From: Nitrososphaeria archaeon
GTDB taxonomy: Archaea; Thermoproteota; Nitrososphaeria; JACIWG01
Direction: 5' to 3'
Assembly: GCA_963752255.1 (NCBI GenBank)
Contig: CAVVXT010000010.1
Location: 32,001-96,000 of the forward strand
Length of the DNA stretch: 64,000 nt
Shown here: in pieces, positions 11,068 through 50,216 of the stretch
Numbering within the stretch: the first letter of the stretch is position 1
Layout of the letters: each line of letters starts with the position of its first letter
Notes under the pieces: model-generated
The model's database searches: none
What the model was told of the DNA's origin: nothing
The model's input: the letters and a program-made list of their open reading frames with translations, nothing else
Position numbers and translations under genes: made by a program

Positions 11068-12024
11068 ATGGCCGAAGATAGCAAATATGATGTAATCATT
11101 GTTGGCGCAGGAGTTTCAGGGCTTACGGCAGGAATCTATTCCTGCCGCAGGAATCTCAAGACACTAATAATATCCAAAGATATCGGAGGACAGGCTCTGA
11201 TCGCAAAGGAGATAGAAAATTATCCTGGATTCGAAAGATCAAGCGGCGCAGATCTCGTGCAGAAGGTCTTGGAGCAGGCTCAAAACTTTGGCACCGAAAT
11301 TGTTTTAGACGAAGTCAAATCTGTAACGAAAAAAGGTGAAGGAGAATTTCATATTCAAACAGTACAGGGAGAGTATTTTGCAAAGGCAGTTATTATTGCT
11401 TCAGGAAAGATCTCAAGGGATCTGAATGTACCTGGTGAAGAAAGGTTCAAAGGTATGGGGGTGTCTTATTGCGCTACATGTGATGCTCCGTTATACAAAG
11501 ACAAGAAAGTTTTGGTTGTAGGCGATGGAAGCTACGCCTTTGATGCCGTAGTTCTTCTGTCAAAATATGCAAAAGAAGTTCACTTTGCAACCAAGAGGAA
11601 AGATCTACCAATTGAAGAGGAGAATATCAACCTTATTATGGGAGCTAAAAATGTTTCCATATATTATGACACAAACGTTAAAGAAGTGAAGGGGACATTT
11701 AAAGTCGTTTCAGTTGTTCTAGAATTAACTGGGAAAAATGCTTTTGAACTACCAATCGATGGCATCTTTGTTGAATTAGGATATGTAATCAAGGTCGATC
11801 CATTCAGGAACTTGGTAACACTAGATGAGAGAAAACAGATAATTATAACAAATAAGAATGAGACCTTTACACCGGGAGTGTTTGCTTCAGGAGACGTTAC
11901 AAACACTCCCTTCAAACAGTTCGTGATTTCGGCTTCGGAAGGCGCCAAAGCAGCCCTTTCAACCTACGAATACATACAAAAGATTTCAGGAAAATCTGCA
12001 GTAACGATCGACTGGCACAAATAA
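11068..12024 (+). CDS. trxB: Thioredoxin-disulfide reductase
   Basis: GAGVSG, IENYPG, GVSYCATCD redox motif and GVFASGD. Confidence 0.9.
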   Translation: MAEDSKYDVIIVGAGVSGLTAGIYSCRRNLKTLIISKDIGGQALIAKEIENYPGFERSSGADLVQKVLEQAQNFGTEIVLDEVKSVTKKGEGEFHIQTVQGEYFAKAVIIASGKISRDLNVPGEERFKGMGVSYCATCDAPLYKDKKVLVVGDGSYAFDAVVLLSKYAKEVHFATKRKDLPIEEENINLIMGAKNVSIYYDTNVKEVKGTFKVVSVVLELTGKNAFELPIDGIFVELGYVIKVDPFRNLVTLDERKQIIITNKNETFTPGVFASGDVTNTPFKQFVISASEGAKAALSTYEYIQKISGKSAVTIDWHK

Positions 12025-12142
12025 ACATAATTAAGTCTAAAAAACTAGTATCGAAAAAAGGAATAGTAAATTAATCCTTTAAAACATCTATCAAGTAGCT
12101 GCAATCAATAAGATTTTTATTACCAGTTCATCAAGATGTGTT

Positions 12143-13447
12143 ATGCCCAGTTTAGAAGAATTTATTCGAGATCTTTGGATAATGGATTCTCATGAACATG
12201 TCGCACAAGAGAAGGAAAGGATTGCACAGCGTGCTGACCCTCTTCAAATATTTTTGGCACATTACGCTTCATCAGACCTTATTTCGGCTGGATTCACTTT
12301 TGACGATTATGGAAGAGCAGTCAATCTGGATCTTCCACTTCTTAAACGATGGAATATTATAGAACCCTTTTGGTCCAAAGCTCAGAACACCGCCTACTTC
12401 AATTCTCTCAAGATTGCCATTAAGGACATTTATGGCATGGAAGAAGTCAACGCAGGGACAATACAGGAACTTTCTGATAGAATGAACAATATGAATAAGA
12501 AGGGACTTTATAGAAAAATTTTAAAAGATAAAGCAAAAATTGAACGTTCAATATTTGATGGAATAACTGACATAGTGGATGTAGATAAAGAATTCTTCGC
12601 ACCTGTCGTTAGACTTGAAGACTTCATAATGATACGGAGTAGGGAGAACATTAGAAGTGTAAGCCAGATGTTAAAGGTGCCAATACATTCCCTAAAGGAA
12701 CTAGAGAGGGCTTTGGAAATCAGAGTAGAAGGTATTTTGGATAAGATTGTAGGCTTTAAGATCGCTTTAGCTTATAAAAGGGAGATCTTTTTTGAAAAGG
12801 TTACATTTTATGACGCAGAAAAGGTATTTAATAAAATAATGAGTTCTAAGGATACATACATAAGATATACAAGGTCTGATGGTGTCCGAGTTACTTTACC
12901 AGACGAAATTTCGATAGAAGAAGGACGCTGTCTACAAGATTACATGGTTCACAAGATGCTCCAACTGGCTTCGAAGTATTCCCTACCGGTTCAAGTTCAC
13001 ACGGGTCTACAGGAGGGAAACCTGAACCTAGTCAGTAACTCTAACCCTCTTCTACTTGCCAACTTGTTTATGGAATATGATGATGTCAAGTTTGATGTTT
13101 TCCATGGATCGTATCCGTACATAAAGGAGCTTGCAGCAATTGCAAAGAACCTTGCCAACGTTTACGCTGACCTAAGCTGGCTACATATAGTTTCACCAAC
13201 TTCAGCAAAGGAAGCATTGAGAGACTGGTTGGACACCATCCCATCGAATAAGATACTGGGATTCGGTGGAGACTACAGATTTGTAGAGGGAATATACGCT
13301 CATTCGAGGATGGCCAGAGAGGACATAGCAGCCGTTCTAAGAGAAAAGATAAATGAAGGAAGGTTCAGTGAAGAAGAAGCAAAACGAATTGCCAGAATGA
13401 TTCTAAGAGACAACATCCTAGAAGTATTCAACAGAGTAAAAGTTTGA
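12143..13447 (+). CDS. Amidohydrolase superfamily protein (uronate isomerase-like)
   Basis: DSHEH, QVHTG, FHGSYPY, and KILGFGGD metal-binding motifs. Confidence 0.85.
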   Translation: MPSLEEFIRDLWIMDSHEHVAQEKERIAQRADPLQIFLAHYASSDLISAGFTFDDYGRAVNLDLPLLKRWNIIEPFWSKAQNTAYFNSLKIAIKDIYGMEEVNAGTIQELSDRMNNMNKKGLYRKILKDKAKIERSIFDGITDIVDVDKEFFAPVVRLEDFIMIRSRENIRSVSQMLKVPIHSLKELERALEIRVEGILDKIVGFKIALAYKREIFFEKVTFYDAEKVFNKIMSSKDTYIRYTRSDGVRVTLPDEISIEEGRCLQDYMVHKMLQLASKYSLPVQVHTGLQEGNLNLVSNSNPLLLANLFMEYDDVKFDVFHGSYPYIKELAAIAKNLANVYADLSWLHIVSPTSAKEALRDWLDTIPSNKILGFGGDYRFVEGIYAHSRMAREDIAAVLREKINEGRFSEEEAKRIARMILRDNILEVFNRVKV

Positions 13448-13544
13448 TTTATCTCCGAATAGATAAGCAACAGGTCGGTTGGATTTTCAACTAAATACAA
13501 CGGAGTCCATATTATTTAAATGCTAAATAAATAGGTACCAACCT

Positions 13545-13886
13545 ATGCTTGAATACGAATATAAATATCCGTTAGAAGTCTTGGATAGTTATCTTTATCG
13601 TAACTTGCGTAGGGATATTAGTGGTAGGATAATATCCGATAATATTACTTGGTTTAAATTGGGAAGAACGACTAGAAATTATATAGTAGATAAAATACTA
13701 AGAGAAATGGAGTCTGTAGTTAAAGAGCTCTGTCCAAAAACAGAACTGGCCTATCACGATACTTCGGGGAACCGCTGGGTATTTCTTGTTTTCAAAGGCA
13801 GTCCTAGTGCTGCTGAACTAAGACAGATGCAGAGAGCTTATGAAGCAGTATTTGATCCTACATTTATGCGTTGGAGAGTTAGCTGA
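13545..13886 (+). CDS. Hypothetical protein (113 aa)
   Basis: ATG ORF with TATA-like tttaaa at 13515-13520; no recognisable motif. Confidence 0.6.
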   Translation: MLEYEYKYPLEVLDSYLYRNLRRDISGRIISDNITWFKLGRTTRNYIVDKILREMESVVKELCPKTELAYHDTSGNRWVFLVFKGSPSAAELRQMQRAYEAVFDPTFMRWRVS

Positions 13887-13999
13887 AGTTTTCTGTATAA
13901 ACTCTCGTCAATTTCTCACAAGATTATCAAGCTCTCTTCGTGACATCAAAAAAGCACACATGTATCTTAAGATAAAAATTAATATTCTTTTAGAGAAGC

Positions 14000-14488
14000 C
14001 TATTCTTTATGAATTGGATTATCCGATTTCTGTTGAGGTAGAAGATCGTCTTTTACTATATATTGTGCTGGTTCAATCTTGGTTACAGTATATTCTTGAC
14101 GTTGGACTGGGGGTATAATTAGTAATATCTTTTTGAGAGCCATTCTTCCTTTGAGACGTTTTATCAGATTATATAGATTTTTGCCGCTCATCTGATCAAG
14201 CCCAGCTTCAACCTTTCTGTAGATCGACATAAGCTCGGCCTTCCTTCTCTCCCAGTCTTCTTTCCCGACTTCGGCTAAAGTGCTGGCAGCGTTGCTCTTA
14301 GGAAAGATGAATGCTGGCAGAATTAAGCTCAGATCTATCAATTTATCAAACATATCCTCCCCTGCCCCTTCAATCTTTGCTAGGATCATTTCTCTAACGA
14401 TATTGGCGAGCTTCTTCTTCATTTCAGCATCTACTTTAGCCACCTCTTCAATCGTGGGGGTGAACCTCACGTGGACGTCTTCACCCAA
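14000..14488 (-). CDS. Hypothetical alpha-helical protein (162 aa)
   Basis: Start overlaps the stop of 14481..15731 (translational coupling); protein-like composition. Confidence 0.7.
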   Translation of the reverse strand: MGEDVHVRFTPTIEEVAKVDAEMKKKLANIVREMILAKIEGAGEDMFDKLIDLSLILPAFIFPKSNAASTLAEVGKEDWERRKAELMSIYRKVEAGLDQMSGKNLYNLIKRLKGRMALKKILLIIPPVQRQEYTVTKIEPAQYIVKDDLLPQQKSDNPIHKE

Positions 14489-15731
14489 GCCCTATCGCCG
14501 AATCCATTGAGGAGATCAGGTTTTTAAGAGATTCCTCGATCTGCCCGCCGACCGGATGACCCTTCAGCCAAGACCCGAACGCATCCAGCAGGATCCTCAT
14601 CGCTGGGAGGACTTCATACCTGTCGCCCTTCGACCCCTCAACAAGCTTCAGCAGGGGCCACATCACGTCAAACCTGCCAACCTGCTTACCAAACTCCTCA
14701 GCCTTAGACAACCTTTCTATCGCCGGGTTCACCTTATCCAGTATGCCCTGCAGCCTTTCTAGAGGCTCTTCAGTCAGGGACTTCAGCTCTGACGCATCCC
14801 TTTTCGCATTTTCATTCATTTCTTTCGTGTTCGCCTTGACATCTTCCTTCAGCTTAACCAGGAGATCTTCCACTTCTTGGGACGCCTTCCTTATCTGTGG
14901 TATGATGCTGTTCGTGATTGTGCTGACTCGATGCCTGCGCCAAAGCCTTCGTTTTCTCGAGACCGCCGACTTCCTCAAGAGGTCAGCCTTCCTCCCTTCT
15001 AGGTTCGATACTTCGGAGCCAAGTTTCTTTAGCGTTGAAGAGACCTCCCCAACTTCAGAGACGTAGGCGATCAGTTTACGTAGGTCAAACCCCTGTTCTC
15101 CGCCGCCCTTCAGCATGTTGGAGAGCTTGTGAACATCTCGGATATCTTGTGAAAACTGCGCCAGCGTGCTTCTGGCTTTCACATACTCAATTAGGTCTTC
15201 GATTGTGGCCTTCTTCTGCGCCAGCGCGTTTTCCCTTTCTTCTGCAGCCTTCGCAGACTCCGCCTTCAACTCTTTAATCTGCTGCTCCAACTTGGAGGTC
15301 TCCTTCTTCTTGGACCTATAATCATTGATGAGCTCTTCATATCTTATGCCTGTATTGGCGTACAAGTTGGATAGCTCAATGGCGTAGCGTGAGACATGTT
15401 CTGGACTGTAGCCTAAATCTATGGATGTCTGATAGAACTTGGCTATAAAGCCCTCGGAATCTGCTTCACCCACTTTCATCTTCCTGAGCAGGGAGACGAT
15501 GTTTACACCCTCAACGGCCTGTTCTACGGTGATGTTTTCACGTCTGAGCTGGATCGAAATTTCCCTGAGCCTCTCCCCTTCTGGCCCAACTTCTCTTTTC
15601 AACCCGTCCCATATCTTGGATACGTAGCCACCTGAGACGGAGCACGCCTCAGCTGTTTCATCCCTCTTGGTGCCAAGGAGGTAGGCCCTGACTATCTTCA
15701 CATCGGTTTCAGACGGTATCCTTCTGACCAT
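14481..15731 (-). CDS. N-terminal HTH domain plus long coiled-coil protein (416 aa)
   Basis: YLLGTKRDETAEACSVSGGYVSKIW fits an HTH pattern; E/K/L heptads over about aa 130-345; TATA (ttaaata on minus strand, 15754-15760) just upstream. Confidence 0.8.
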   Translation of the reverse strand: MVRRIPSETDVKIVRAYLLGTKRDETAEACSVSGGYVSKIWDGLKREVGPEGERLREISIQLRRENITVEQAVEGVNIVSLLRKMKVGEADSEGFIAKFYQTSIDLGYSPEHVSRYAIELSNLYANTGIRYEELINDYRSKKKETSKLEQQIKELKAESAKAAEERENALAQKKATIEDLIEYVKARSTLAQFSQDIRDVHKLSNMLKGGGEQGFDLRKLIAYVSEVGEVSSTLKKLGSEVSNLEGRKADLLRKSAVSRKRRLWRRHRVSTITNSIIPQIRKASQEVEDLLVKLKEDVKANTKEMNENAKRDASELKSLTEEPLERLQGILDKVNPAIERLSKAEEFGKQVGRFDVMWPLLKLVEGSKGDRYEVLPAMRILLDAFGSWLKGHPVGGQIEESLKNLISSMDSAIGLG

Positions 15732-15742
15732 GTTATTATTCT

Positions 15743-15845
15743 GTCCTATCAGCTATTTAAGCCGTCATATCCGTCATATTGGTCATAACATCCGTCATAT
15801 CCGTCATATCAGTCATATCATTAAGGGTGTTCGTCATATCAGTCA
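15743..15845. repeat. Cluster of 9-bp direct repeats GTCATATC(C/A) (operator/iteron-like)
   Basis: GTCATA at 15764, 15773, 15782, 15794, 15803, 15812 and 15833, with variants at 15743 and 15842; arranged as two 30-bp triplets (15762-15791, 15792-15821). Confidence 0.9.
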
Positions 15846-16013
15846 GGCCGTTTAATTGGGCGCCCGAGCCTGCCGTTCTAATTTTATTTGCGATAAATCA
15901 TATCGAGCCCTTAACACAGCATTTATTTTGTTAAATCGTTCACTTCATCACCTAAAGATGCTTTGCTGGGATGTACTGGGGTGCACGGGGTTCAGCTGTC
16001 AAGTTTGCCGTTA

Positions 16014-16043
16014 ATAGGGTACCCTATCGGCGCTAACTTTAAG
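16014..16043 (+). promoter_or_regulatory. Perfect 14-bp palindrome ATAGGGTACCCTAT upstream of a TATA-like TTTAAG
   Basis: Palindrome at 16014-16027, flanked by GCCG/CGGC; TTTAAG at 16038-16043, about 27 nt before ATG 16070. Confidence 0.6.
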
Positions 16044-16069
16044 AGCTGCCGAGCCATAACTTATTGGAC

Positions 16070-16660
16070 ATGTCGTTCGTCGTATGCCCGCTGTGCGGTA
16101 GGATGGTTAGTTTAAGGACGTTCGATCCTCAGTCATTGGACCTTAACGTCTACGTTCAGGACGTTAAGGGGCTCGGTAGGGGTAGGGGGTTCAAGGTCGT
16201 CGGCCGAGGTTCAGCCCTCGATAGGCCGTCGGTCACGGGGCCGATAAAGGGTAGGCTTCTCGACCTGTCGCTGATGCTGTACAACGAGGGGCTTCTGTCT
16301 AAGGAGGAGGTGGCTGAAAGGTTTGGCCTGGTCCTGCCTGAGAATTATGAGACACTCGAAGATGAGCGTGACGCGTTGCAGGCCGATCTCGAAGAGACGG
16401 AGGGCCGGCTTAAAGATGCTGAAGGCAAGCTCGCTAAGGTGAAGCATGAGCTTGAGGAGGCTAACGAAGGTTTCTCAGACAGGATGAACGAGTTAACCGA
16501 CCTCATAGCTAAAGCGTTGGAGGAGGACATCACAGGCTGGGAGGTCAGAGTAGAAGGAGAAGATGAAGATGGGGATAAGGCCTATGCTACACTTAGATAC
16601 GGTTTAGAAAGGTTAATAGACGACTATGGCGCTCTTGAAGCTATGCAGGAGGAATCCTGA
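16070..16660 (+). CDS. Hypothetical protein with N-terminal CPLCG knuckle, GLGRGRGF motif and acidic coiled coil
   Basis: ORF 16064..16660 with ATG at 16070; stop overlaps the next start (TGATG). Confidence 0.75.
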   Translation: MSFVVCPLCGRMVSLRTFDPQSLDLNVYVQDVKGLGRGRGFKVVGRGSALDRPSVTGPIKGRLLDLSLMLYNEGLLSKEEVAERFGLVLPENYETLEDERDALQADLEETEGRLKDAEGKLAKVKHELEEANEGFSDRMNELTDLIAKALEEDITGWEVRVEGEDEDGDKAYATLRYGLERLIDDYGALEAMQEES

Positions 16661-17166
16661 TGGCAGAAGCATCCAGCAAGACAGGAGATCAAGAGGAAAT
16701 TTCAGCATGCAGCCTGGATAGTCTCAGTAAGCTTTGTGAGAAACACTCTAAGATATTGTTCATTGCCACTAAAGAGGATAGGAAGTGCTTCGTTCAAAAG
16801 TTCACGAAGGGCTGTTCACTCGATGACATCAAAATCGTTCCAGTGCAGGCCGGTGGATCCTGTGAAATCAACGGAAAACTTGGGCTTGAAGCTCCCTCAG
16901 CAGTACTTATGGAAAAAGGGGAGGTGAAGTGCAGAATTCCCTTGGAGGACGACGATGTTACAGATACCGCTCATTTGATGAAGGCTTTGTCGGAGAAACC
17001 GTCAGATGTTAGCACGTGTGGGGCCGAGTTAAAAGTCAATGCAAAGACGTGGGGGTTAAAACTTCAACCGACTCAACCTTGCAAGAGGGAAATTTCCAAC
17101 CTGTCCAAGCTACCGCATCATGCCCAGAAGTATTTTACTGAGCATATAGAAACGGGAGAAAAGTGA
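16660..17166 (+). CDS. Cys-rich hypothetical protein, possible degenerate thioredoxin fold
   Basis: KLGLEAPSAVLMEKGEVKCRI resembles the thioredoxin cis-Pro/beta-hairpin motif; no CxxC. Confidence 0.65.
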   Translation: MAEASSKTGDQEEISACSLDSLSKLCEKHSKILFIATKEDRKCFVQKFTKGCSLDDIKIVPVQAGGSCEINGKLGLEAPSAVLMEKGEVKCRIPLEDDDVTDTAHLMKALSEKPSDVSTCGAELKVNAKTWGLKLQPTQPCKREISNLSKLPHHAQKYFTEHIETGEK

Positions 17167-17260
17167 ACATATGTAAACGCTACAGGGATCGTGCTCTTAG
17201 TTTGTACCCTATTATAGTTATGATTCCCTAACTAGTTGTAGGTTCAAACTAGAATGTTTG

Positions 17261-17424
17261 ATTCATGATCTGATCTATTCTCATTGAAATTCTATATCGC
17301 ATTTGCAAACATCATAGTCTTCCGCTGTTTTAATCGAACTATAATAGGATTGAAAGACCTACTACGTTTACGTGCAGCTACCTCGTTGAGGGGGGGTGTT
17401 GATGATCTTTGACTGTTTAGAAAC
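17261..17424 (+). CRISPR. Orphan CRISPR-like mini-array / solitary repeat unit (one intact 30-bp repeat, two highly degenerate flanking repeats)
   Basis: GTTTTAATCGAACTATAATAGGATTGAAAG at 17327-17356. ATTGAAAT ends at 17290, leaving a 36-bp gap. TAGAAAC ends at 17424, leaving a gap of about 38 bp. Confidence 0.5.
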
Positions 17425-17447
17425 TATCCGACGACATGCTCTACGTA

Positions 17448-17471
17448 TGGGTTCAAATCCCACCGGACCCG
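17448..17471 (+). other. tRNA 3'-end fragment (T-arm plus acceptor strand), att-site-like
   Basis: TGGG-TTCAAAT-CCCAC-CGGACCC-G, with no matching 5' half (GGGTCCG plus D and anticodon arms) upstream. Confidence 0.7.
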
Positions 17472-17673
17472 CACCCAATTCTTCTCTGTTCATTATATTT
17501 ACGAGTAAATTATTGCCTAAATCCAACCCCCTACAATATCTATTTTACATTGATAAGATTCTTATTGTGAGAGAAAAATATTTGCCAAGAGTCCTTGTAG
17601 CTTTTAGAGGGAATAGATGTTTCAAAAAAAATCAGCATACAACAAAGTCGTTCCGTTCATTCGAATGTCAATT

Positions 17674-18726
17674 CTAGAGGTTTTCCGCCTCAAACCTTTT
17701 CGTCAGAGATGCCATCTTTACAGGTAGGAGCTCTCTGATTGGAAGATGGTATGGGCATCTTGATTCGCATTCGCCACATTTAAGACAGGTAGGAACTAGC
17801 TCTTTGGCCTTTTGAAACTGACTTTTAAGGTTAGGTGTCCAGCCCATCCGTCTTAGAAATTGTTTTTCAGTGCGCAATACATAGGAAATAGGTATCCCTT
17901 GCTGACAGGGTTGGCAGTAGTCGCAGCCGCGGCAGTATTCGGGTCCGAGTTCTTTCCTGTCTTTTTCTATGAGTTTCAGCTCTTCGGAGTTTAATGTATA
18001 AGAAGCTGATGCAGTAGCGATGTTCTCTTCTACTTCCTGTAAGTTCATCATTCCTGGAATTACTACATCAACATTCTTATCGTTTAGTAGGAATTTAAGT
18101 GCCGTCTTTGTATTGCTGAAGGCTCCTCCGCCAAATGGCTTCATTATTACCGTGCCCACCTGGTTTTTACTACAAAAAGGTAGCAAGTCCTCTCCTGGCA
18201 GAGTTGCGAGGTAGTTATAAGGTACTAAGATAGTTTCAAAGATGTTTTCTTGTACGATCTCTTTCAGAAGCAACGGATTATGGCTTGTGATTCCCAGGTG
18301 CTTTATTTTCCCATCTTCATGTGCCTTAATTAAGGCTTCCAGTACTCCACCCGGGGCTTTAACCTGCTTCCAAGCCTCTTTTGTTGACACATTATGCAGT
18401 TGATAGATATCTACCCATTCTGTTCTAAGATTTTTTAGGCTTGTCTCAAGTTCTTGTAGAACCTCACCTTTGGTTAGTCTCTGTGTTTTTGTTGCTATGA
18501 TTACATCGTCTCTCACATCTTCAAGAGCTTTTCCTATCCTCTCTTCACTGACCGTGTACGCTCTTGCCGTATCAAAATAATTAATACCCCTATCATAGCA
18601 GTGGCGGACGACCTTAACAGCTTCATCTTCAGAGATTCTCTGGATTGGGATACCACCAAACCCCAAGGTCTTTACCTTTAGACCTGTTCGACCCAGAATT
18701 CTTTCTTTCAAAGTATTTATCCTCAA
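17674..18726 (-). CDS. Aldo/keto reductase with C-terminal 4Fe-4S dicluster domain
   Basis: GINYFDTARAY, IATKT, DIYQLH and MKPFGGG motifs; CRGCDYCQPC and CLKCGECESRCP. Confidence 0.93.
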   Translation of the reverse strand: MRINTLKERILGRTGLKVKTLGFGGIPIQRISEDEAVKVVRHCYDRGINYFDTARAYTVSEERIGKALEDVRDDVIIATKTQRLTKGEVLQELETSLKNLRTEWVDIYQLHNVSTKEAWKQVKAPGGVLEALIKAHEDGKIKHLGITSHNPLLLKEIVQENIFETILVPYNYLATLPGEDLLPFCSKNQVGTVIMKPFGGGAFSNTKTALKFLLNDKNVDVVIPGMMNLQEVEENIATASASYTLNSEELKLIEKDRKELGPEYCRGCDYCQPCQQGIPISYVLRTEKQFLRRMGWTPNLKSQFQKAKELVPTCLKCGECESRCPYHLPIRELLPVKMASLTKRFEAENL

Positions 18727-19104
18727 CTCTTGCGTTACATTGAATATATAACTTTTCTAAACCACGAGAATACGCCAATCCTTTTTACGCTTATACCTTT
18801 ACCAAATTAATCTTTCTTAGTACGATAAGTCCTGTTAAGCAGGCTGTTCCCAGACCTTTGCAATTTTTTCTCAAGATATACTCGATCTTACTATTGTATC
18901 CAATTGTTCTACCAGTGATCTCGCTTTCAATCTCCATTCATCTTTAAAATACTATTACAGAAATGAAAAGCTAAAATAAACCGTATTTCCTGATTGTTAT
19001 CATCATTTCTAGATATCCCATTTTTAGAAACTTTCGCACAAATCATATATCCAAAAATACAAAGAATATATAATTAAAACGTAAGATTATGGAAAGTTTA
19101 ATAA

Positions 19105-20808
19105 TTGATTGAAGCCTGCCTTATAACTAGTGATATTTTGGGTCCTCAAGAGGGAATAATTAAAATCCTCAAACAGGAAGGAATTGAATTTTTGAGTGTC
19201 ATGCCCGTTGGCAACTTAACCCCCCAAGCTAGCAAAGAAAAACTCCGTATCATCATGATGAGAACTGAACGCTTCGCGGTCGGTCTTGCAGACGGCTACT
19301 CCAGAGCTTCAAACGGGAAGAAGATAGGTGTATTTAACATTCAAGGGGGAGCCTTCCCTGTAGGAGCTGAGATAGCTCAAGGGGCTATAGCCCAAGCCTT
19401 TGAAGACAGCTCACCAATCCTAGGTATAATGGCTGGTCCGACGCTCAGTCAACTCGGGCAGAACCGCTTTGATATAACAAGACAATATTCAGGGATTACA
19501 AAATGGACAGCTTACATCCCTGAAAGTTATCGAATTCCAGAGTTTATGAGGAGAGCATTCACCTACCTCAGAACTGGGAGGCGAGGACCTGTCGTCCTGC
19601 ACTGTTCAAGTGTGAACAGGGGACCTGAAGAACTGAACTGGGGTGACTATGATAACACGAAGTACCCCTACGAACCGGTTAAGGGGTGGCGGTATCCTGG
19701 AGACCCTCGAGATGTAGAGGTGACGGTTAAGGCCCTTCTGGCAGCGAAGAAACCTGTGATATACGCAGGTCAGGGAATCTTCTATGCTGACGCCTGCCAA
19801 GAGCTTGTCGAATTCGCTGAGCTCGTTCAAGTACCAGTAGTGACAACGCTACTGGCTAAGAGCGCCTTCCCAGAGGATCATCCTCTTTCAGTAGGAGTTT
19901 CAGGGCTTCCAGCGGAACATTATATTGGTGGCGCCGACTTGGTCTTTGGCATAGGGGAGAGTCTTTCTCCAGGAGATTTCAAGCACTACTTTGACGGCTC
20001 AGGTAAAACTATAATTCAAGCTGATATTGATGAAAGAGACATTAACATCCGCTATAAGATCGATCACGCCATCGTCGGCGACGCAAAACTCATTCTACAA
20101 CAGCTAATATCAGAAGTCAAAAGACAAGGAAGACAAGGAATCCGAAAGAATGAAAAACTGCAAGATGAGATAAGAGACCTCAAAGCCAAGAAGATGGAAA
20201 AATACAAGCAGGCGATCGAATCAAACGAAAAGCCGATCAATCCATACAGGGTCTACTGGGATTTAATGAACACCATAGATAGGAGGAATTCAGTTATCTC
20301 CCACGAGGCTGGGAGCACTAGAGATCAGCTGAGAACCATCTATGAAGCCATTATTCCAAGAGGCTTCATTGGCTGGGGAAACGCTAGCAGCCTCGGCTTC
20401 GGATTAAGTGCCGCAGCAGGAGCAAAACTCGCTTATCCAAAGAGGGATTGTATCCATGTGACAGGGGACGGAGGTATCATGTATCAGATAGGCAACTTCG
20501 AAGCTCTCGTCAGAGAAAATATAGCAATAACCACAATTCACATCAATAACAGCGGCTTTGCAGGATATGGATCTGGCTTCTGGGGTTCAGGACATAATCC
20601 GGAGACTAGCGCTGTTACATCCTCTACTATACTGAGTACAAGTCGGATAGCTGAGGGATTTGGCGAACATGCTGAGCGGGTTGAAGAACCCGACGAGATA
20701 GCACCTGCCATCAAAAGGGCAATTAAAGTCAATCGTTCAGGAAAGCCTGCGTTGCTTGAGTTCATCTGCTCCCAATACCCAGTCTACGACGATTGGATGC
20801 ACAAATAA
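19105..20808 (+). CDS. Thiamine pyrophosphate-requiring enzyme (acetolactate synthase-like)
   Basis: RTERFAVGLADGYSR, GRRGPV, KPVIYAGQG and the TPP-binding GDGG...NN motif. Confidence 0.9.
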   Translation: MIEACLITSDILGPQEGIIKILKQEGIEFLSVMPVGNLTPQASKEKLRIIMMRTERFAVGLADGYSRASNGKKIGVFNIQGGAFPVGAEIAQGAIAQAFEDSSPILGIMAGPTLSQLGQNRFDITRQYSGITKWTAYIPESYRIPEFMRRAFTYLRTGRRGPVVLHCSSVNRGPEELNWGDYDNTKYPYEPVKGWRYPGDPRDVEVTVKALLAAKKPVIYAGQGIFYADACQELVEFAELVQVPVVTTLLAKSAFPEDHPLSVGVSGLPAEHYIGGADLVFGIGESLSPGDFKHYFDGSGKTIIQADIDERDINIRYKIDHAIVGDAKLILQQLISEVKRQGRQGIRKNEKLQDEIRDLKAKKMEKYKQAIESNEKPINPYRVYWDLMNTIDRRNSVISHEAGSTRDQLRTIYEAIIPRGFIGWGNASSLGFGLSAAAGAKLAYPKRDCIHVTGDGGIMYQIGNFEALVRENIAITTIHINNSGFAGYGSGFWGSGHNPETSAVTSSTILSTSRIAEGFGEHAERVEEPDEIAPAIKRAIKVNRSGKPALLEFICSQYPVYDDWMHK

Positions 20809-44911: not shown

Positions 44912-46057
44912 ATGCCTGAAGTTTGGTTAAAATATGGTAAAGTCGAGGTGGCTCTGGAGATTCAAAGGGAGAGGCTTGGGCAAGTTATAGAAGATCCACT
45001 TCCTAGTATAGAAATAGAACAAATAGAAAAGGAACTTCAGCCCTTAAAGGAGGATAAGGAAATCAACTTGCTCGTTGGAGACTTTGAGACGTCAACCATA
45101 CAGTTTTTGCAATATCTCGCAAACTATCTTGGAGCAGCCAAGGTCAATATTTATTCAAGTGATCAAATTCTAAAGCAGCTTAAGAAAAGCCTTAAGGATT
45201 TACTTTATTCATTCCTGAAAATCGAAGAAGAAAGGTTTCCTGTAGGCATCGTTGATGGCGTTCCATTAAAGCTTCCAGCCATCCTCTCAAAGACCAACCT
45301 CTATTTGATTTCTTCAGTTGGATACAGCCCTCTATTTGGGTTTTCAGGTGGGTCTACATGTCTGCTGGCATTTTGTGGAGACGATTTAAAATATGAAGCA
45401 ATAAAAAGAGAGACTGAGCTAAAGCCTAATTCGGGTAAAGAAACATCGGCCGGATGGTTTGCTAATCGAGTTTCTGAAGAAGTAAGCGGATTAAAGGGTG
45501 TTGAGATTCTTCCCGGAAGCAGCGGGTTTAGTAAAATTTTCTTAGGAAATGTCCAAGAAGTACACAAGATAGCTAGCCAAGAACTCTTAAAGTATTCAAT
45601 GAAAAAGGTTAGTTCTAAGGTTTCACTCGCCATTGTAGCACCTGGTGAAGAAGAAAAATGTCGAACTTTAGATCTTTCACTTAATTCGTTATGGAACGTT
45701 CTTCAAGCAATGGAAGAAGGATCCACTATTATTTTATTGTCAGAAGCGATTGAAAGTCTCGGATCAGAAGCACTGTCAAGATATGTTTACACAGGATTAG
45801 ACATAAAAGACTTGTTAAAGAGAGGACCGTATTTGGAAGGACTTGAAAATCTTTATTATTTATCAGATATTAAAACTAAGTACGACCTAGGATTTCTGAC
45901 AACACTTCCTAAAGCACTAATTGAAAAAAGACTTGGTTTCAAAAGCTTCCTTACGGGCAACTCTACGGTAGATTATCTTGTAGAAAAAAGTGGGGATAAA
46001 AAGAAGAAGATCACGATAGTTACAAGAGGGGATAAAAGTCTTCTAACAGGGGTCTAG
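44912..46057 (+). CDS. LarA/DUF2088-like protein (divergent)
   Basis: EVWLKYG start, FGFSGG and EG.TIILLSE...LG patterns; start taken at ATG 44912. Confidence 0.65.
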   Translation: MPEVWLKYGKVEVALEIQRERLGQVIEDPLPSIEIEQIEKELQPLKEDKEINLLVGDFETSTIQFLQYLANYLGAAKVNIYSSDQILKQLKKSLKDLLYSFLKIEEERFPVGIVDGVPLKLPAILSKTNLYLISSVGYSPLFGFSGGSTCLLAFCGDDLKYEAIKRETELKPNSGKETSAGWFANRVSEEVSGLKGVEILPGSSGFSKIFLGNVQEVHKIASQELLKYSMKKVSSKVSLAIVAPGEEEKCRTLDLSLNSLWNVLQAMEEGSTIILLSEAIESLGSEALSRYVYTGLDIKDLLKRGPYLEGLENLYYLSDIKTKYDLGFLTTLPKALIEKRLGFKSFLTGNSTVDYLVEKSGDKKKKITIVTRGDKSLLTGV

Positions 46058-47167
46058 ATCGGTATCGGCGCGCAAAGAATGACGACAGCTATCATAAGGA
46101 CGAAAACAATCTTTCTTGATCTTGATAACGGTGAAATTTCATCTAAAGGTCTTATATTGCTTTGACTAGAAGAGAAGAATAGAACCAGAAGCGCCATGAG
46201 CAAAAACCCAAAGATCGCCATTATAATTGCTGATAAAAAAGTGGCAATCGTTTGTTGCCTTCCTGAGAGAACACTGCGGGCCATGTGACCGCCATCAAGT
46301 TGCCATGCGGGTAGCGTATTCAGGAATGTTATAAGAAAACCGAACCATGCAGCGTAAGCTATAGGGGACATGATGACTACAACCTCTTGTGAAATAGAGA
46401 CTTTACCTAGGCATGGTCATCATCAAATTCATCAACAAAGGAATATTAGTAACTGTGACTTGATTGGAACCGAATAAACTATTAAACGTACTTAGAGGAA
46501 GAGTAACAGAAGACAACACACCAAAAACTCCAACCAGTGTAGTAGTAATGAAACCAGCAAGAGGACCGAAAAGACCGATATCAAATTGTATGTCTCGATT
46601 AGGCATCGGATCCGTGGCAAAGATGACTGCACCGAAAGTTGGAATCCCTGTACCTGGTATACCTGGGATGAAATAAGGAAGTGTAGATGCCATTCGATGC
46701 CGCCTTGCCATTAGAAGGTGACCTAGCTCGTGGAGACCAAGGATTCCTACGAATGCGAGTACATAGGACAGTGTTACAATGATAGGGTTCGATTCTGGAA
46801 AGATTTTCAGATCTATCGCCGAAGAAGCTCTTAACCAACCGTCAACCAATAAGGAAACTATTGTAGCACCAAAAAGAGCTAAAGCTATCTTGACGCTGTA
46901 CTTTTTTTTCTTCACAAAAGGTGCAACGTATAAAGTGAGGAAGTCGCCTTCTTTTCTTAGTATTGGAACGTACATTCTCTCATGCAAGAAACTGCATAGT
47001 CCAAGAAACTTATCCTTTGTATCTTTCTCCAATAAAAGTTTATATTCAATAGCACCATCGGAATGAACATATGAGTCGAGAACAGTGAAGTTCTTTTTGA
47101 CTTCATTTGTTATCTCTTCAAAAGTCGCCACGTTCGACGGCCCAATATTCTCCATCTGAGGAGGCAT
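46054..47167 (-). CDS. M50 site-2 protease, split by one extra base near 46410
   Basis: HELGH, GLFGPLAG and NTLPAWQLDGGH; the two ORFs join via MLGKVSISQEVVVIMSP if one base is removed. Confidence 0.9.
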
Positions 47168-49060: not shown

Positions 49061-49669
49061 CTACGATTTAGCACCTCTATAATATATCCATATCGGAAGA
49101 GAAAATGCGACAATACCTATTATTTGGAAAACTAAAGAGAAAATTTGATAAAAAAAAGGGTTGTAAACAAATTCAGCAAGCCAACTTAAAACTGATTGAG
49201 CCGCAAAACCTATTAAACCCAATGCAGTTATTAAAACAATCTTAGACCTGTTCATGGAATATGAAATCAGAGTTTCTAGGGTAGCGTAGAATATAAAGAA
49301 AATGGAAAGAGCTTTAAATGCAGCAATGGGATTGAATATGAATAAAGAGAGACTCGCAACCTTTTTTTCTTGTGAGACTTTAACCATATGAGAAAATGCT
49401 ATAAAGAAAAAGCCCATCATTTCGAAGAAAGAGGCACCTATGTGAAGGTAGTTATAAAAAACGGTAAATCCGAAGATTACAAGAAAATCCGCAAAAAATT
49501 GTAGGAAGAAGTTAACTGAGAGGCTTGCAAAAGCAAGGGAAAGCCTCGCGAAAACTGACCTCTTGGTTTCTGAAAAACCTTTGTAGGAAACAAACAGTAC
49601 TGATATAGCCATCACTAAAGCAATTACTTCCAGGACTATCTTTGACTCCTCATACATTACTACGGTCAA
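49061..49669 (-). CDS. Polytopic membrane protein (6-7 TM)
   Basis: Consecutive hydrophobic segments; stop abuts the wHTH start. Confidence 0.75.
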   Translation of the reverse strand: MTVVMYEESKIVLEVIALVMAISVLFVSYKGFSETKRSVFARLSLAFASLSVNFFLQFFADFLVIFGFTVFYNYLHIGASFFEMMGFFFIAFSHMVKVSQEKKVASLSLFIFNPIAAFKALSIFFIFYATLETLISYSMNRSKIVLITALGLIGFAAQSVLSWLAEFVYNPFFYQIFSLVFQIIGIVAFSLPIWIYYRGAKS

Positions 49670-49907
49670 TCAACCTTTCCTATGACGGATTGTAGTTATT
49701 AACTTAATTAATAAAGTGTGAATAAAAGTTAAGCCAGAATACAAAAGTTTTTATTCAAAGAAAGTGTTTAAAAAAAATATTATCTATGAGTTTGAGAATA
49801 AGTTAAAAGTTAGGAAAATTAGGTTTTACATAGATCTTTTATAATAGTAGGGTATTATTTCAAAAATTTAAATACGCCTTATAAGATATTCTGCCTAGAG
49901 GCAAATT

Positions 49908-50216
49908 TTGGTGGAGATTTGTTCCGTTTGTGGGTTACCTAAGGACCTTTGTGTCTGTGAACAAATAAGCAAAGAAAGTGCTAAGATTACTGTACGTTTG
50001 GAGGTTAGAAGGTTTGGTAAACAGACGACTGTTATCGAAGGCATAGATCCGAAGTATAACGATCTGCAGAAAGTCGCCCAGCAGCTCAAGACAGCTTTAG
50101 CTTGTGGTGGTACAGCTAAGAACGGCACCATCCTTTTGCAGGGCGATCACAGGGATGTTATCAAAGAAAGGCTCGTGCAGCTAGGATTTAACAACAATGC
50201 TGTAGAAGTTCAATAG
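49908..50216 (+). CDS. sui1: Translation initiation factor aIF1 (SUI1 family)
   Basis: CSVCGLPKDLCVCE, LACGGT and LQGDHR. Confidence 0.95.
   Translation: MVEICSVCGLPKDLCVCEQISKESAKITVRLEVRRFGKQTTVIEGIDPKYNDLQKVAQQLKTALACGGTAKNGTILLQGDHRDVIKERLVQLGFNNNAVEVQ

Follow-up and report, generated by a model that had tools for sequence, protein, structure and literature searches.

A solitary clustered regularly interspaced short palindromic repeat (CRISPR), GTTTTAATCGAACTATAATAGGATTGAAAG, lies at positions 17327-17356 of the 64,000-nucleotide stretch of Nitrososphaeria archaeon DNA analyzed here, which we call the window. The repeat is 30 nt long and reads on the + strand, and its last 8 nt, ATTGAAAG, would form the 5' handle of a CRISPR RNA (crRNA). 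It is a genuine CRISPR repeat of a type I-B family used by other Nitrososphaeria, and it stands alone, with no demonstrable mini-array around it. We consider it probable that the repeat is the relic of a CRISPR array once borne by a genomic island and that it is most likely inert in its present setting. The window corresponds to positions 32001-96000 of contig C10 of the host genome (G000), an incomplete assembly of 2.1 Mb in 19 contigs with an estimated completeness of 94.7%. An earlier note on this DNA had described the same 30-mer, whose sequence was confirmed, and had read it as part of a mini-array on a mobile element, loading one or two crRNA-like RNAs into a host effector.

The repeat has one copy in the window and, at up to three mismatches, one copy in G000, and a reversed control gave none. 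It is intergenic: the 507-nt spacer around it separates a + strand open reading frame (ORF) that ends at 17166 from a - strand gene for an aldo/keto reductase with its end at 17674. Scanning of the window with ARAGORN and Rfam revealed no tRNA and no Rfam family at its gathering score; the best subthreshold match, CRISPR-DR6, covers exactly the 30 bases (1-30 of 30; E = 0.1) and scores 20.8 bits, the gathering score being 39. Among a sample of 401 genomes from the host class (G000 included), matches at up to three mismatches were found in 47, G000 counted, with up to 199 copies per genome, and the reversed-pattern control gave 0 throughout. By family, these matches fall in 10 of 224 genomes of f5, 6 of 10 of f11 and 25 of 78 of f12, plus four small families, and at the same threshold the repeat is present in 0 of the 9 other sampled genomes of the host's own family. 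The earlier note had proposed a search for similar repeats, which succeeded: the exact 30-mer is arrayed in five loci fetched from other genomes or contigs (such loci carry L numbers here). Three of these are arrays of 4 to 11 copies (L030, L032 and L037), one is a two-repeat unit (L035), and the fifth, found in a one-genome-per-species scan, is a 2.2-kb contig titled as a Nitrososphaeraceae metagenome-assembled genome, with two exact copies at 67-nt spacing, a third copy with three changes and 37-nt spacers (L005). Arrays of two or three repeats are common in the repeat family (L005, L008, L025, L033, L034, L035 and L045). In metagenomes, the 3' 19-nt part of the repeat is present in 29 contigs; when up to six substitutions to the full repeat are allowed, 8 of these have at least four repeats, and two or three repeats, one repeat, and the 19-mer only are each found in 7. 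One mini-array (L053) and one lone repeat (L007) of the family are located among ordinary metabolic genes. The exact 30-mer and a 24-nt family pattern with two N positions each gave 0 matches in IMG/VR, and the repeat family had no match in phage records or plasmids (PLSDB). An 18-mer had a single match in IMG/VR, which lay in an unrelated viral contig, within a long stretch resembling an ORF, and was taken as chance.

Arrays of the family also lie beside cas genes, and the type I-B systems that use the family comprise Cas8b1/Cst1, Cas7 of the Cst2/DevR kind, Cas5t, Cas6, Cas1b and Cas4. In genome G138, a family array adjoins a cas4-cas1b-cas6-cas8b1/Cst1-cas7(Cst2/DevR)-cas5-cas3 locus, which is of type I-B, and homologues of the Cas1b, Cas4 or Cas7 of G138 adjoin family arrays in at least 10 other fetched loci, in agreement with the earlier note's view that the repeat is of a Cas6-processed type. 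In Cas6 systems, the crRNA handle is the last 8 nt of the repeat. The five exact-repeat arrays have in common a leader of about 95 nt with a TTTATAAA box, located upstream of the GTTT...GAAAG orientation; this position shows which strand is transcribed, so that the 8-nt handle is expected to be ATTGAAAG. Comparison of the window with these five loci showed that the conserved leader is absent upstream of 17327. The flanks of the repeat in the window have no homology to the flanks of other family copies.

We also asked whether the repeat is alone, and found neither a second direct repeat separated from it by a spacer nor a leader with a promoter upstream of it, both of which define an array. The earlier note had pointed to an ATTGAAA ending at 17290, 36 nt before the repeat, and a TAGAAAC ending at 17424, 68 nt after it. 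Both motifs are there, but the flanking repeats that they were thought to end do not rise above chance. Upstream, a handle-like 8-mer, ATTGAAAT, occupies 17283-17290 on the + strand, and the rest of a repeat is unrecognizable. In a flank test that compared the best identity over nine spacer lengths with that at random genome sites, the upstream unit matched the repeat at 13 of 30 positions (P = 0.31), with only 6 of 23 positions matching outside the 7-mer. The downstream candidate, a weak repeat-like 30-mer at 17395-17424 (+) with the TAGAAAC end at a spacer length of 38, matched at 15 of 30 (P = 0.058), which is not significant. Gapped alignments of the flanks were likewise not significant (P = 0.12-0.86, and P = 0.93 for 17395-17424). 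Ungapped similarity of 18 to 21 of 30 positions to the repeat was equally frequent for the reversed control, and such weak copies are thus not trustworthy. A degenerate partial copy of the repeat, missed in the earlier note, does lie at 17201-17225 in inverted orientation (- strand), with a 12-nt exact core and 20 of 25 aligned positions identical to the reverse complement of the repeat (local score 14; P = 0.0003 against 3000 random genome segments). The inverted pair points outward across 97-101 nt, an interval without significant internal symmetry (P = 0.09). Segments 17201-17225 and 17331-17347 can pair in a 17-bp stem, and the ends of the repeat itself can pair in an 8-bp stem. Folding gave z = -1.6 for 17190-17365 and z = +1.0 for 17320-17450, so that, apart from the inverted-repeat stem, nothing suggests a structured RNA. 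A look-up of RNA runs for 16000-18500 returned none. Contigs from four metagenome runs cover parts of the island and its flanking genes within 12000-19500, but none extends across 17271-17447, and those runs are therefore uninformative on the repeat.

The host does encode Cas6 and Cascade genes, whose absence would have counted against the earlier note's reading, but they are not those of the repeat family. A type I-B locus of the Csh type is present on contig C19, with cas6 (C19:42683-43465), cas8b (Csh1/TM1802), cas7 (Csh2), cas5h and cas3, and in it cas7 is divided between two ORFs that overlap each other (C19:45304-45669 and 45611-46279). The cas genes are flanked by two inverted arrays, at about C19:42032-42590 and 49620-50120, with inverted-repeat leaders. 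A comparison with host arrays, also proposed earlier, turned up a different repeat: the host array repeat, GTTTGTAGAATACCTATAAGGATTTGAAAC, is identical to the window repeat in 22 of 32 aligned columns, and its handle is TTTGAAAC as opposed to ATTGAAAG. Cas6 has a single match genome-wide, on contig C19 and not on the window contig C10, and is about 25% identical to the Cas6 of G138 (G138:C1:2053094-2053807). Cas1 and Cst2/DevR had no match in the 94.7%-complete assembly, and the C19 locus may be a decaying or adaptation-less system. Given that the host repeat, Cas6 and cas content all differ, the lone repeat does not belong with the one effector that the assembly revealed. The earlier note's statement that the window holds no cas genes stands for the 25 ORFs between 1914 and 27544, none of which belongs to a cas family, and agrees with the location of the sole Cas6 on C19; it does not extend to the whole window, for which an exhaustive check was not made. 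Two further observations concern CRISPR loci elsewhere in G000. A spacer of the second C19 array (near C19:49918) matches C17:22293-22331 at 35 of 39 bases (E = 7e-7), possibly as a self-target or as a provirus on contig C17. A scan candidate at C11:29849-30095, consisting of five tandem 51-nt units, was rejected as a CRISPR array given that it has no spacers.

The 38 nt after the repeat (17357-17394, + strand) are spacer-like or trailer sequence, and no target for them was found. Against 50,697 phage records they gave chance matches in unrelated phages (best E = 0.5), and a 21-nt piece had 0 matches in IMG/VR. Among 55 fetched loci they matched the window itself only. A self-target search of G000 was no better than reversed controls, and the host cas locus (C19:41501-50400) held only an 8-nt seed match, inside cas6. 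The upstream unit, 17291-17326, had no match in its own genome, the only sequence against which it was searched (spacer-region BLAST). The spacer searches that the earlier note had suggested thus returned nothing beyond reversed controls. In the opposite direction, none of 312 family-array spacers and 14 host-array spacers, searched against G000, matches the window island. A 14-mer common to the spacer region and C7:9401-9414 was taken as chance (E = 3.3). The loading of a crRNA-like RNA from the window into a host effector seems unlikely.

The repeat lies at the edge of a region that looks like a small genomic island. Housekeeping genes extend up to 13447 on the left and resume at 17674 on the right, and the approximately 4 kb between them (13545-17166) hold five ORFs without an assigned family, which encode proteins of 113 aa (+), 162 aa (-), 416 aa (-), 198 aa (+) and 168 aa (+). 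Searches of Pfam and PHROG with the island proteins yielded weak coiled-coil matches but otherwise no family, and no hallmark of a virus or plasmid. The 416-aa protein has a helix-turn-helix (HTH) and a coiled coil, and its atlas neighbors are Nitrososphaerota hypothetical proteins of the HTH_23 type, which serves as a lead only; the 198-aa protein has a zinc-finger-like segment and a coiled coil. Searched against all fetched loci, the island proteins had one match, a distant paralogue of the 416-aa protein that is 25% identical over 157 aa and is encoded at C19:34211-35473, at a distance of 7 kb from the CRISPR-cas locus of the host. At least eight tandem GTCATATCC-like 9-mers occupy 15743-15852 (+), between the divergent 416-aa and 198-aa genes; by their sequence they look iteron- or operator-like, resembling the sites of plasmid-like elements. 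Beyond the repeat, 17448-17512 (+) is an attachment (att)-like scar, a copy of the 3' end of a tRNA-Arg(CCG) gene and its downstream flank that is 94% identical over 65 nt to C12:265575-265637. The source gene is C12:265523-265599; the fragment copy starts 91 nt after the repeat, and ARAGORN and Rfam found no whole tRNA there. A further tRNA-Arg fragment copy is located at C19:77284-77326. On the right of the scar, an A8 run on the + strand (T8 on the - strand) at 17617-17628 immediately follows the 3' end of the aldo/keto reductase gene on the - strand, and going by the general rule for oligo-T runs we take it to be the likely archaeal terminator of that gene.

A second genome of the same genus (G009) shows how variable this site is. 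Synteny takes in the left-hand genes, the spacer as far as 17287 and the 198- and 168-aa genes (65-67% aa identity), which are the only two of the five island ORFs present at the syntenic locus. After the spacer, G009 has a first copy of the tRNA-Arg fragment and then some 30.4 kb of different DNA (G009:C1:39667-70109, L062/L063), followed by a second fragment copy and the aldo/keto reductase gene (94-98% identity). The 30.4 kb encode an Eco57I/MmeI-like type IIG restriction-modification gene, an ATP-binding cassette (ABC) ATPase, an HTH_10 protein and sugar-acid enzymes, and are missing from the G000 site. Around the repeat, 172 nt (17288-17459) had no BLAST match in G009, and a MAFFT alignment showed a faint look-alike only. 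The 30.4 kb between two tRNA-Arg fragment copies, together with the unmatched 172 nt, indicate that the site is an active exchange point. The order of elements recurs at the host CRISPR-cas locus, where about 85 nt separate the end of the second array from a tRNA-like direct repeat of 146 nt, the same layout as the window's repeat, 91 nt and tRNA fragment. The window segment 17357-17447 has no homology to the trailer of the C19 array. On C19 itself, the 146-nt direct repeats (C19:50200-50345 and 77334-77478; 84% identical) flank 27 kb right after the CRISPR-cas locus, and these 27 kb are probably another integrated element. The earlier note's placement of the repeat on a mobile element is thus borne out as far as a variable, island-like region beside an integration scar goes, but not as to an integrase or hallmark gene, neither of which was found.

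The analysis establishes what the repeat is, its single occurrence in the genome, the cas association of its family, the cas content of the host, the att-like site and the variability of the locus; we infer both the origin of the repeat by array decay and its present inactivity, as follows. An island integrated at a tRNA-Arg-type site would have brought a Cst-type I-B CRISPR array or mini-array; the array and any cas genes would then have been lost, leaving 17327-17356 as the last intact repeat, the degenerate inverted copy about 100 nt upstream as a second remnant, and the att scar. The lone repeat would sit where a small cryptic island of plasmid-like character ends on the right, beside a site of integrative-element turnover. 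The layout mirrors the island-like C19 locus of the host (inverted array, cas genes, array, about 85 nt, tRNA-like direct repeat). Read-through from the upstream genes could transcribe the repeat, but processing to a working crRNA is improbable. With no leader or promoter, no second repeat, no matching Cas6 or Cascade and no target, the repeat is most likely inert.

Several observations weigh against this account. The main one is that the repeat is identical at 30 of 30 positions to working repeats; its inverted partner has decayed to 20 of 25, and at the syntenic position G009 has a faint look-alike only. So perfect a copy is unlikely under long neutral decay, and its survival beside decayed surroundings suggests that it is either recent or kept by selection. 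An ATTGAAA at the right upstream spacing has P of about 0.0016 for nine offsets (727 genome copies), for a motif chosen post hoc. Taken with the downstream identity of 15 of 30 (P = 0.058), this spacing makes a decayed three-repeat unit with a preserved center possible. An 18-mer made of the last 12 nt of the repeat and the next 6 nt, TAGGATTGAAAGACCTAC, recurs at C6:6889-6906 in G000 (E = 0.013) and at the orthologous G009:C8:89571-89588, about 100 nt upstream of a gene for a small membrane protein and with weaker similarity for about 13 bases further; the region is about 93% identical throughout between the two genomes, so the conservation of TAGGATTGAAAGACCTAC there is uninformative. At 94.7% completeness, a cognate cas locus could be missing from the assembly. 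Finally, no integrase was found near the island and no left att copy within it, so that we infer the mobile element and do not observe it.

Among other explanations, a role as a Racr (RNA anti-CRISPR)-like decoy or as a guide is, in total, a minority chance though not a trivial one. As a decoy, which is clearly unlikely, a transcript of the repeat, made for instance when the 198/168-aa operon is read through, would bind the type I-B Cas6 or Cas7 of the host or of the element's usual hosts, diverting Cas proteins from crRNAs. Solitary repeat units (SRUs) of viruses, prophages and plasmids, described along with Racr, are by definition intergenic, match a known repeat with an identity and a coverage of 90% or more, and have no partial repeat of more than 70% identity in their 100-bp flanks (Camara-Wilpert et al. 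2023, PMC10651486). The window repeat, with 100% identity and coverage, an intergenic position and no significant direct flank copy, would be an SRU by our approximation of these criteria, which used flank alignments in place of the 70%-identity test of SRUFinder and leaves the inverted partial copy starting 101 nt upstream. Like the SRUs described there, it is a single full-length intergenic repeat with no cas nearby and no significant direct second repeat, in island-like DNA of a host with the I-B label. Its perfect preservation, its position at an island and att border and the 8-bp stem of its ends would also suit a decoy, as would a host type I-B system whose subtype label matches. However, unlike what that study describes, no virus or plasmid hallmark, integrase or recognized promoter was found here, and both the host repeat and the host Cas6 differ. 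A Racr mimics its host's own repeat, but here only the I-B label is common to the two repeats, with 22 of 32 columns identical and a TTTGAAAC handle in the host. The host Cas6 is distant (about 25%) from that of the family, and with cas7 split and cas1 not found there would be little for a decoy to inhibit. A Racr is also expected on a virus, prophage or plasmid; the island has iteron-like repeats and an att-like border, but the searches for an integrase and for Pfam or PHROGs hallmarks found none, no leader or promoter is recognizable, and the repeat family was not found in IMG/VR, phage records or PLSDB. Similarly doubtful is the broader proposal that selection has kept the repeat as an RNA part of tRNA-site islands, acting as a Racr-like decoy or as the precursor of a one-repeat guide that uses type I-B Cas proteins in trans.

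We give little credence to a recombination scar between inverted arrays that flanked a cas cassette, or to a stretch of homology for recombination between element and array. The polarity of the inverted pair is that of the two outward-reading C19 arrays, and a tRNA-like repeat follows at about 85-91 nt in both places. Recombination between inverted repeats, however, leads to inversion and not to deletion, the 97-nt interval within the pair lacks significant symmetry, 17357-17447 is not homologous to the C19 trailer, and in 18 other one-repeat loci no inverted partner scored as high (best 12, compared with 14 in the window). The degenerate mini-array of the earlier note, yielding crRNA-like RNAs from 17291-17326 and 17357-17394 as a competitor guide or CreA-type regulator, deserves scant credence and ranks lower again. 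Its spacers would be 36 and 38 nt long, in line with the 35-38 nt of spacers in the family, the family commonly forms two- and three-repeat arrays, and ATTGAAAT, which ends exactly 36 nt upstream, is a handle variant of real family arrays; the downstream 15 of 30 points the same way. Against it stand the 6 of 23 matches of the upstream unit beyond the 7-mer and the nonsignificant gapped tests, the failure to find a cognate Cas6 or a target for either unit (for the upstream one, within its own genome), and a position away from any cas operon, where CreA and cr-like RNAs are not located. A chance look-alike or an assembly artifact is practically negligible and, for the central repeat, already rejected. 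Similarity of 18 to 21 of 30 is as common for the reversed control, and in an incomplete, multicontig assembly a repeated att-like site could in principle mislead the assembler to the right of 17448. The 30 of 30 identity to repeats arrayed elsewhere with controls at 0, the location of the repeat inside a 174-kb contig and the synteny of its left flank with G009 to 40 nt before the repeat all argue otherwise.

Returning to the relic of an island-borne array, the locus has clear parallels. Orphan and decayed CRISPR remnants are known in prokaryotic chromosomes, where an intact repeat sits with degenerate neighbors and no cognate cas genes in a variable region; the window locus shows no difference of substance from these, and we file it in this class. 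In CreTA, a stand-alone repeat with a spacer-like part lies in or beside a cas operon and pairs partially with a toxin promoter. The CreA-type and cr-like RNAs described in a recent preprint resemble the window in having a stand-alone repeat followed by a spacer-like stretch, but they lie in or beside cas operons and pair partially with cas or toxin promoters (Shmakov et al. 2023, 10.1101/2023.03.03.530964). In G000 the cas locus is on C19 and the window on C10, and no partial match to the cas locus exceeded controls. The virus-borne mini-CRISPR arrays of another study are, like the reading of the window as a mini-array, very short cas-less archaeal units on mobile DNA that rely on host Cas proteins; they differ in having at least two repeats and a spacer targeting related viruses (Medvedeva et al. 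2019, PMC6858448), whereas here no second repeat rose above chance and no target was found. A further parallel is with the integrated elements of Thaumarchaeota, which carry stand-alone arrays and type I-B loci with 69-96 spacers and usually target tRNA genes (39 integrations, 57%), and whose arrays were inferred in that work to have lost their cas genes (Krupovic et al. 2019, PMC6563490). They share with the window the archaeal group, the cas subtype and the occurrence of cas-less arrays on integrated elements; they differ in that they hold 69-96 spacers, not one repeat, and the island here has no integrase.

Other lone repeats of the family provide a further comparison, and both they and decayed arrays are common elsewhere, with at least 15 further one-repeat loci. 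We considered 21 other one-repeat loci, after dropping L015, L051, L069, L072 and L073 as contig-edge pieces or arrays and counting L026 and L036 once. Four of the 21 lie less than 500 nt from a tRNA gene, at distances of 81-447 nt (L007, Cys; L013, Gly; L016, Asn; L058, Ser), compared with 0 of 32 multi-repeat loci, whose flanks were only partly sampled; the share expected with about 40 tRNA genes per 2 Mb is about 2-3%. One of the four, L007, consists of the conserved leader and a single repeat directly after tRNA-Cys. On this small sample, the proximity of lone repeats to tRNA genes is a lead. Degenerate neighbors are kept beside the apparent single repeats of L013, L016, L049, L058, L072 and L078, which indicates that arrays of the family do decay to single repeats.

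In summary, nothing that we found favors an expressed, Cas6-bound RNA over simple decay at this locus. The locus is a well-documented case of an orphan CRISPR repeat. The repeat family, of type I-B and characteristic of other families of Nitrososphaeria, has entered a lineage in which none of the 9 relatives sampled carries the repeat, and the locus marks a tRNA-Arg-derived integration hotspot at which islands turn over within one genus. If the repeat were expressed and bound by Cas6, RNA anti-CRISPRs or one-repeat guides would be extended to archaeal integrated elements. If it were an RNA part maintained by selection, the lone repeats near tRNA genes (4 of 21 compared with 0 of 32) would mark a class of archaeal island-borne repeat RNAs.

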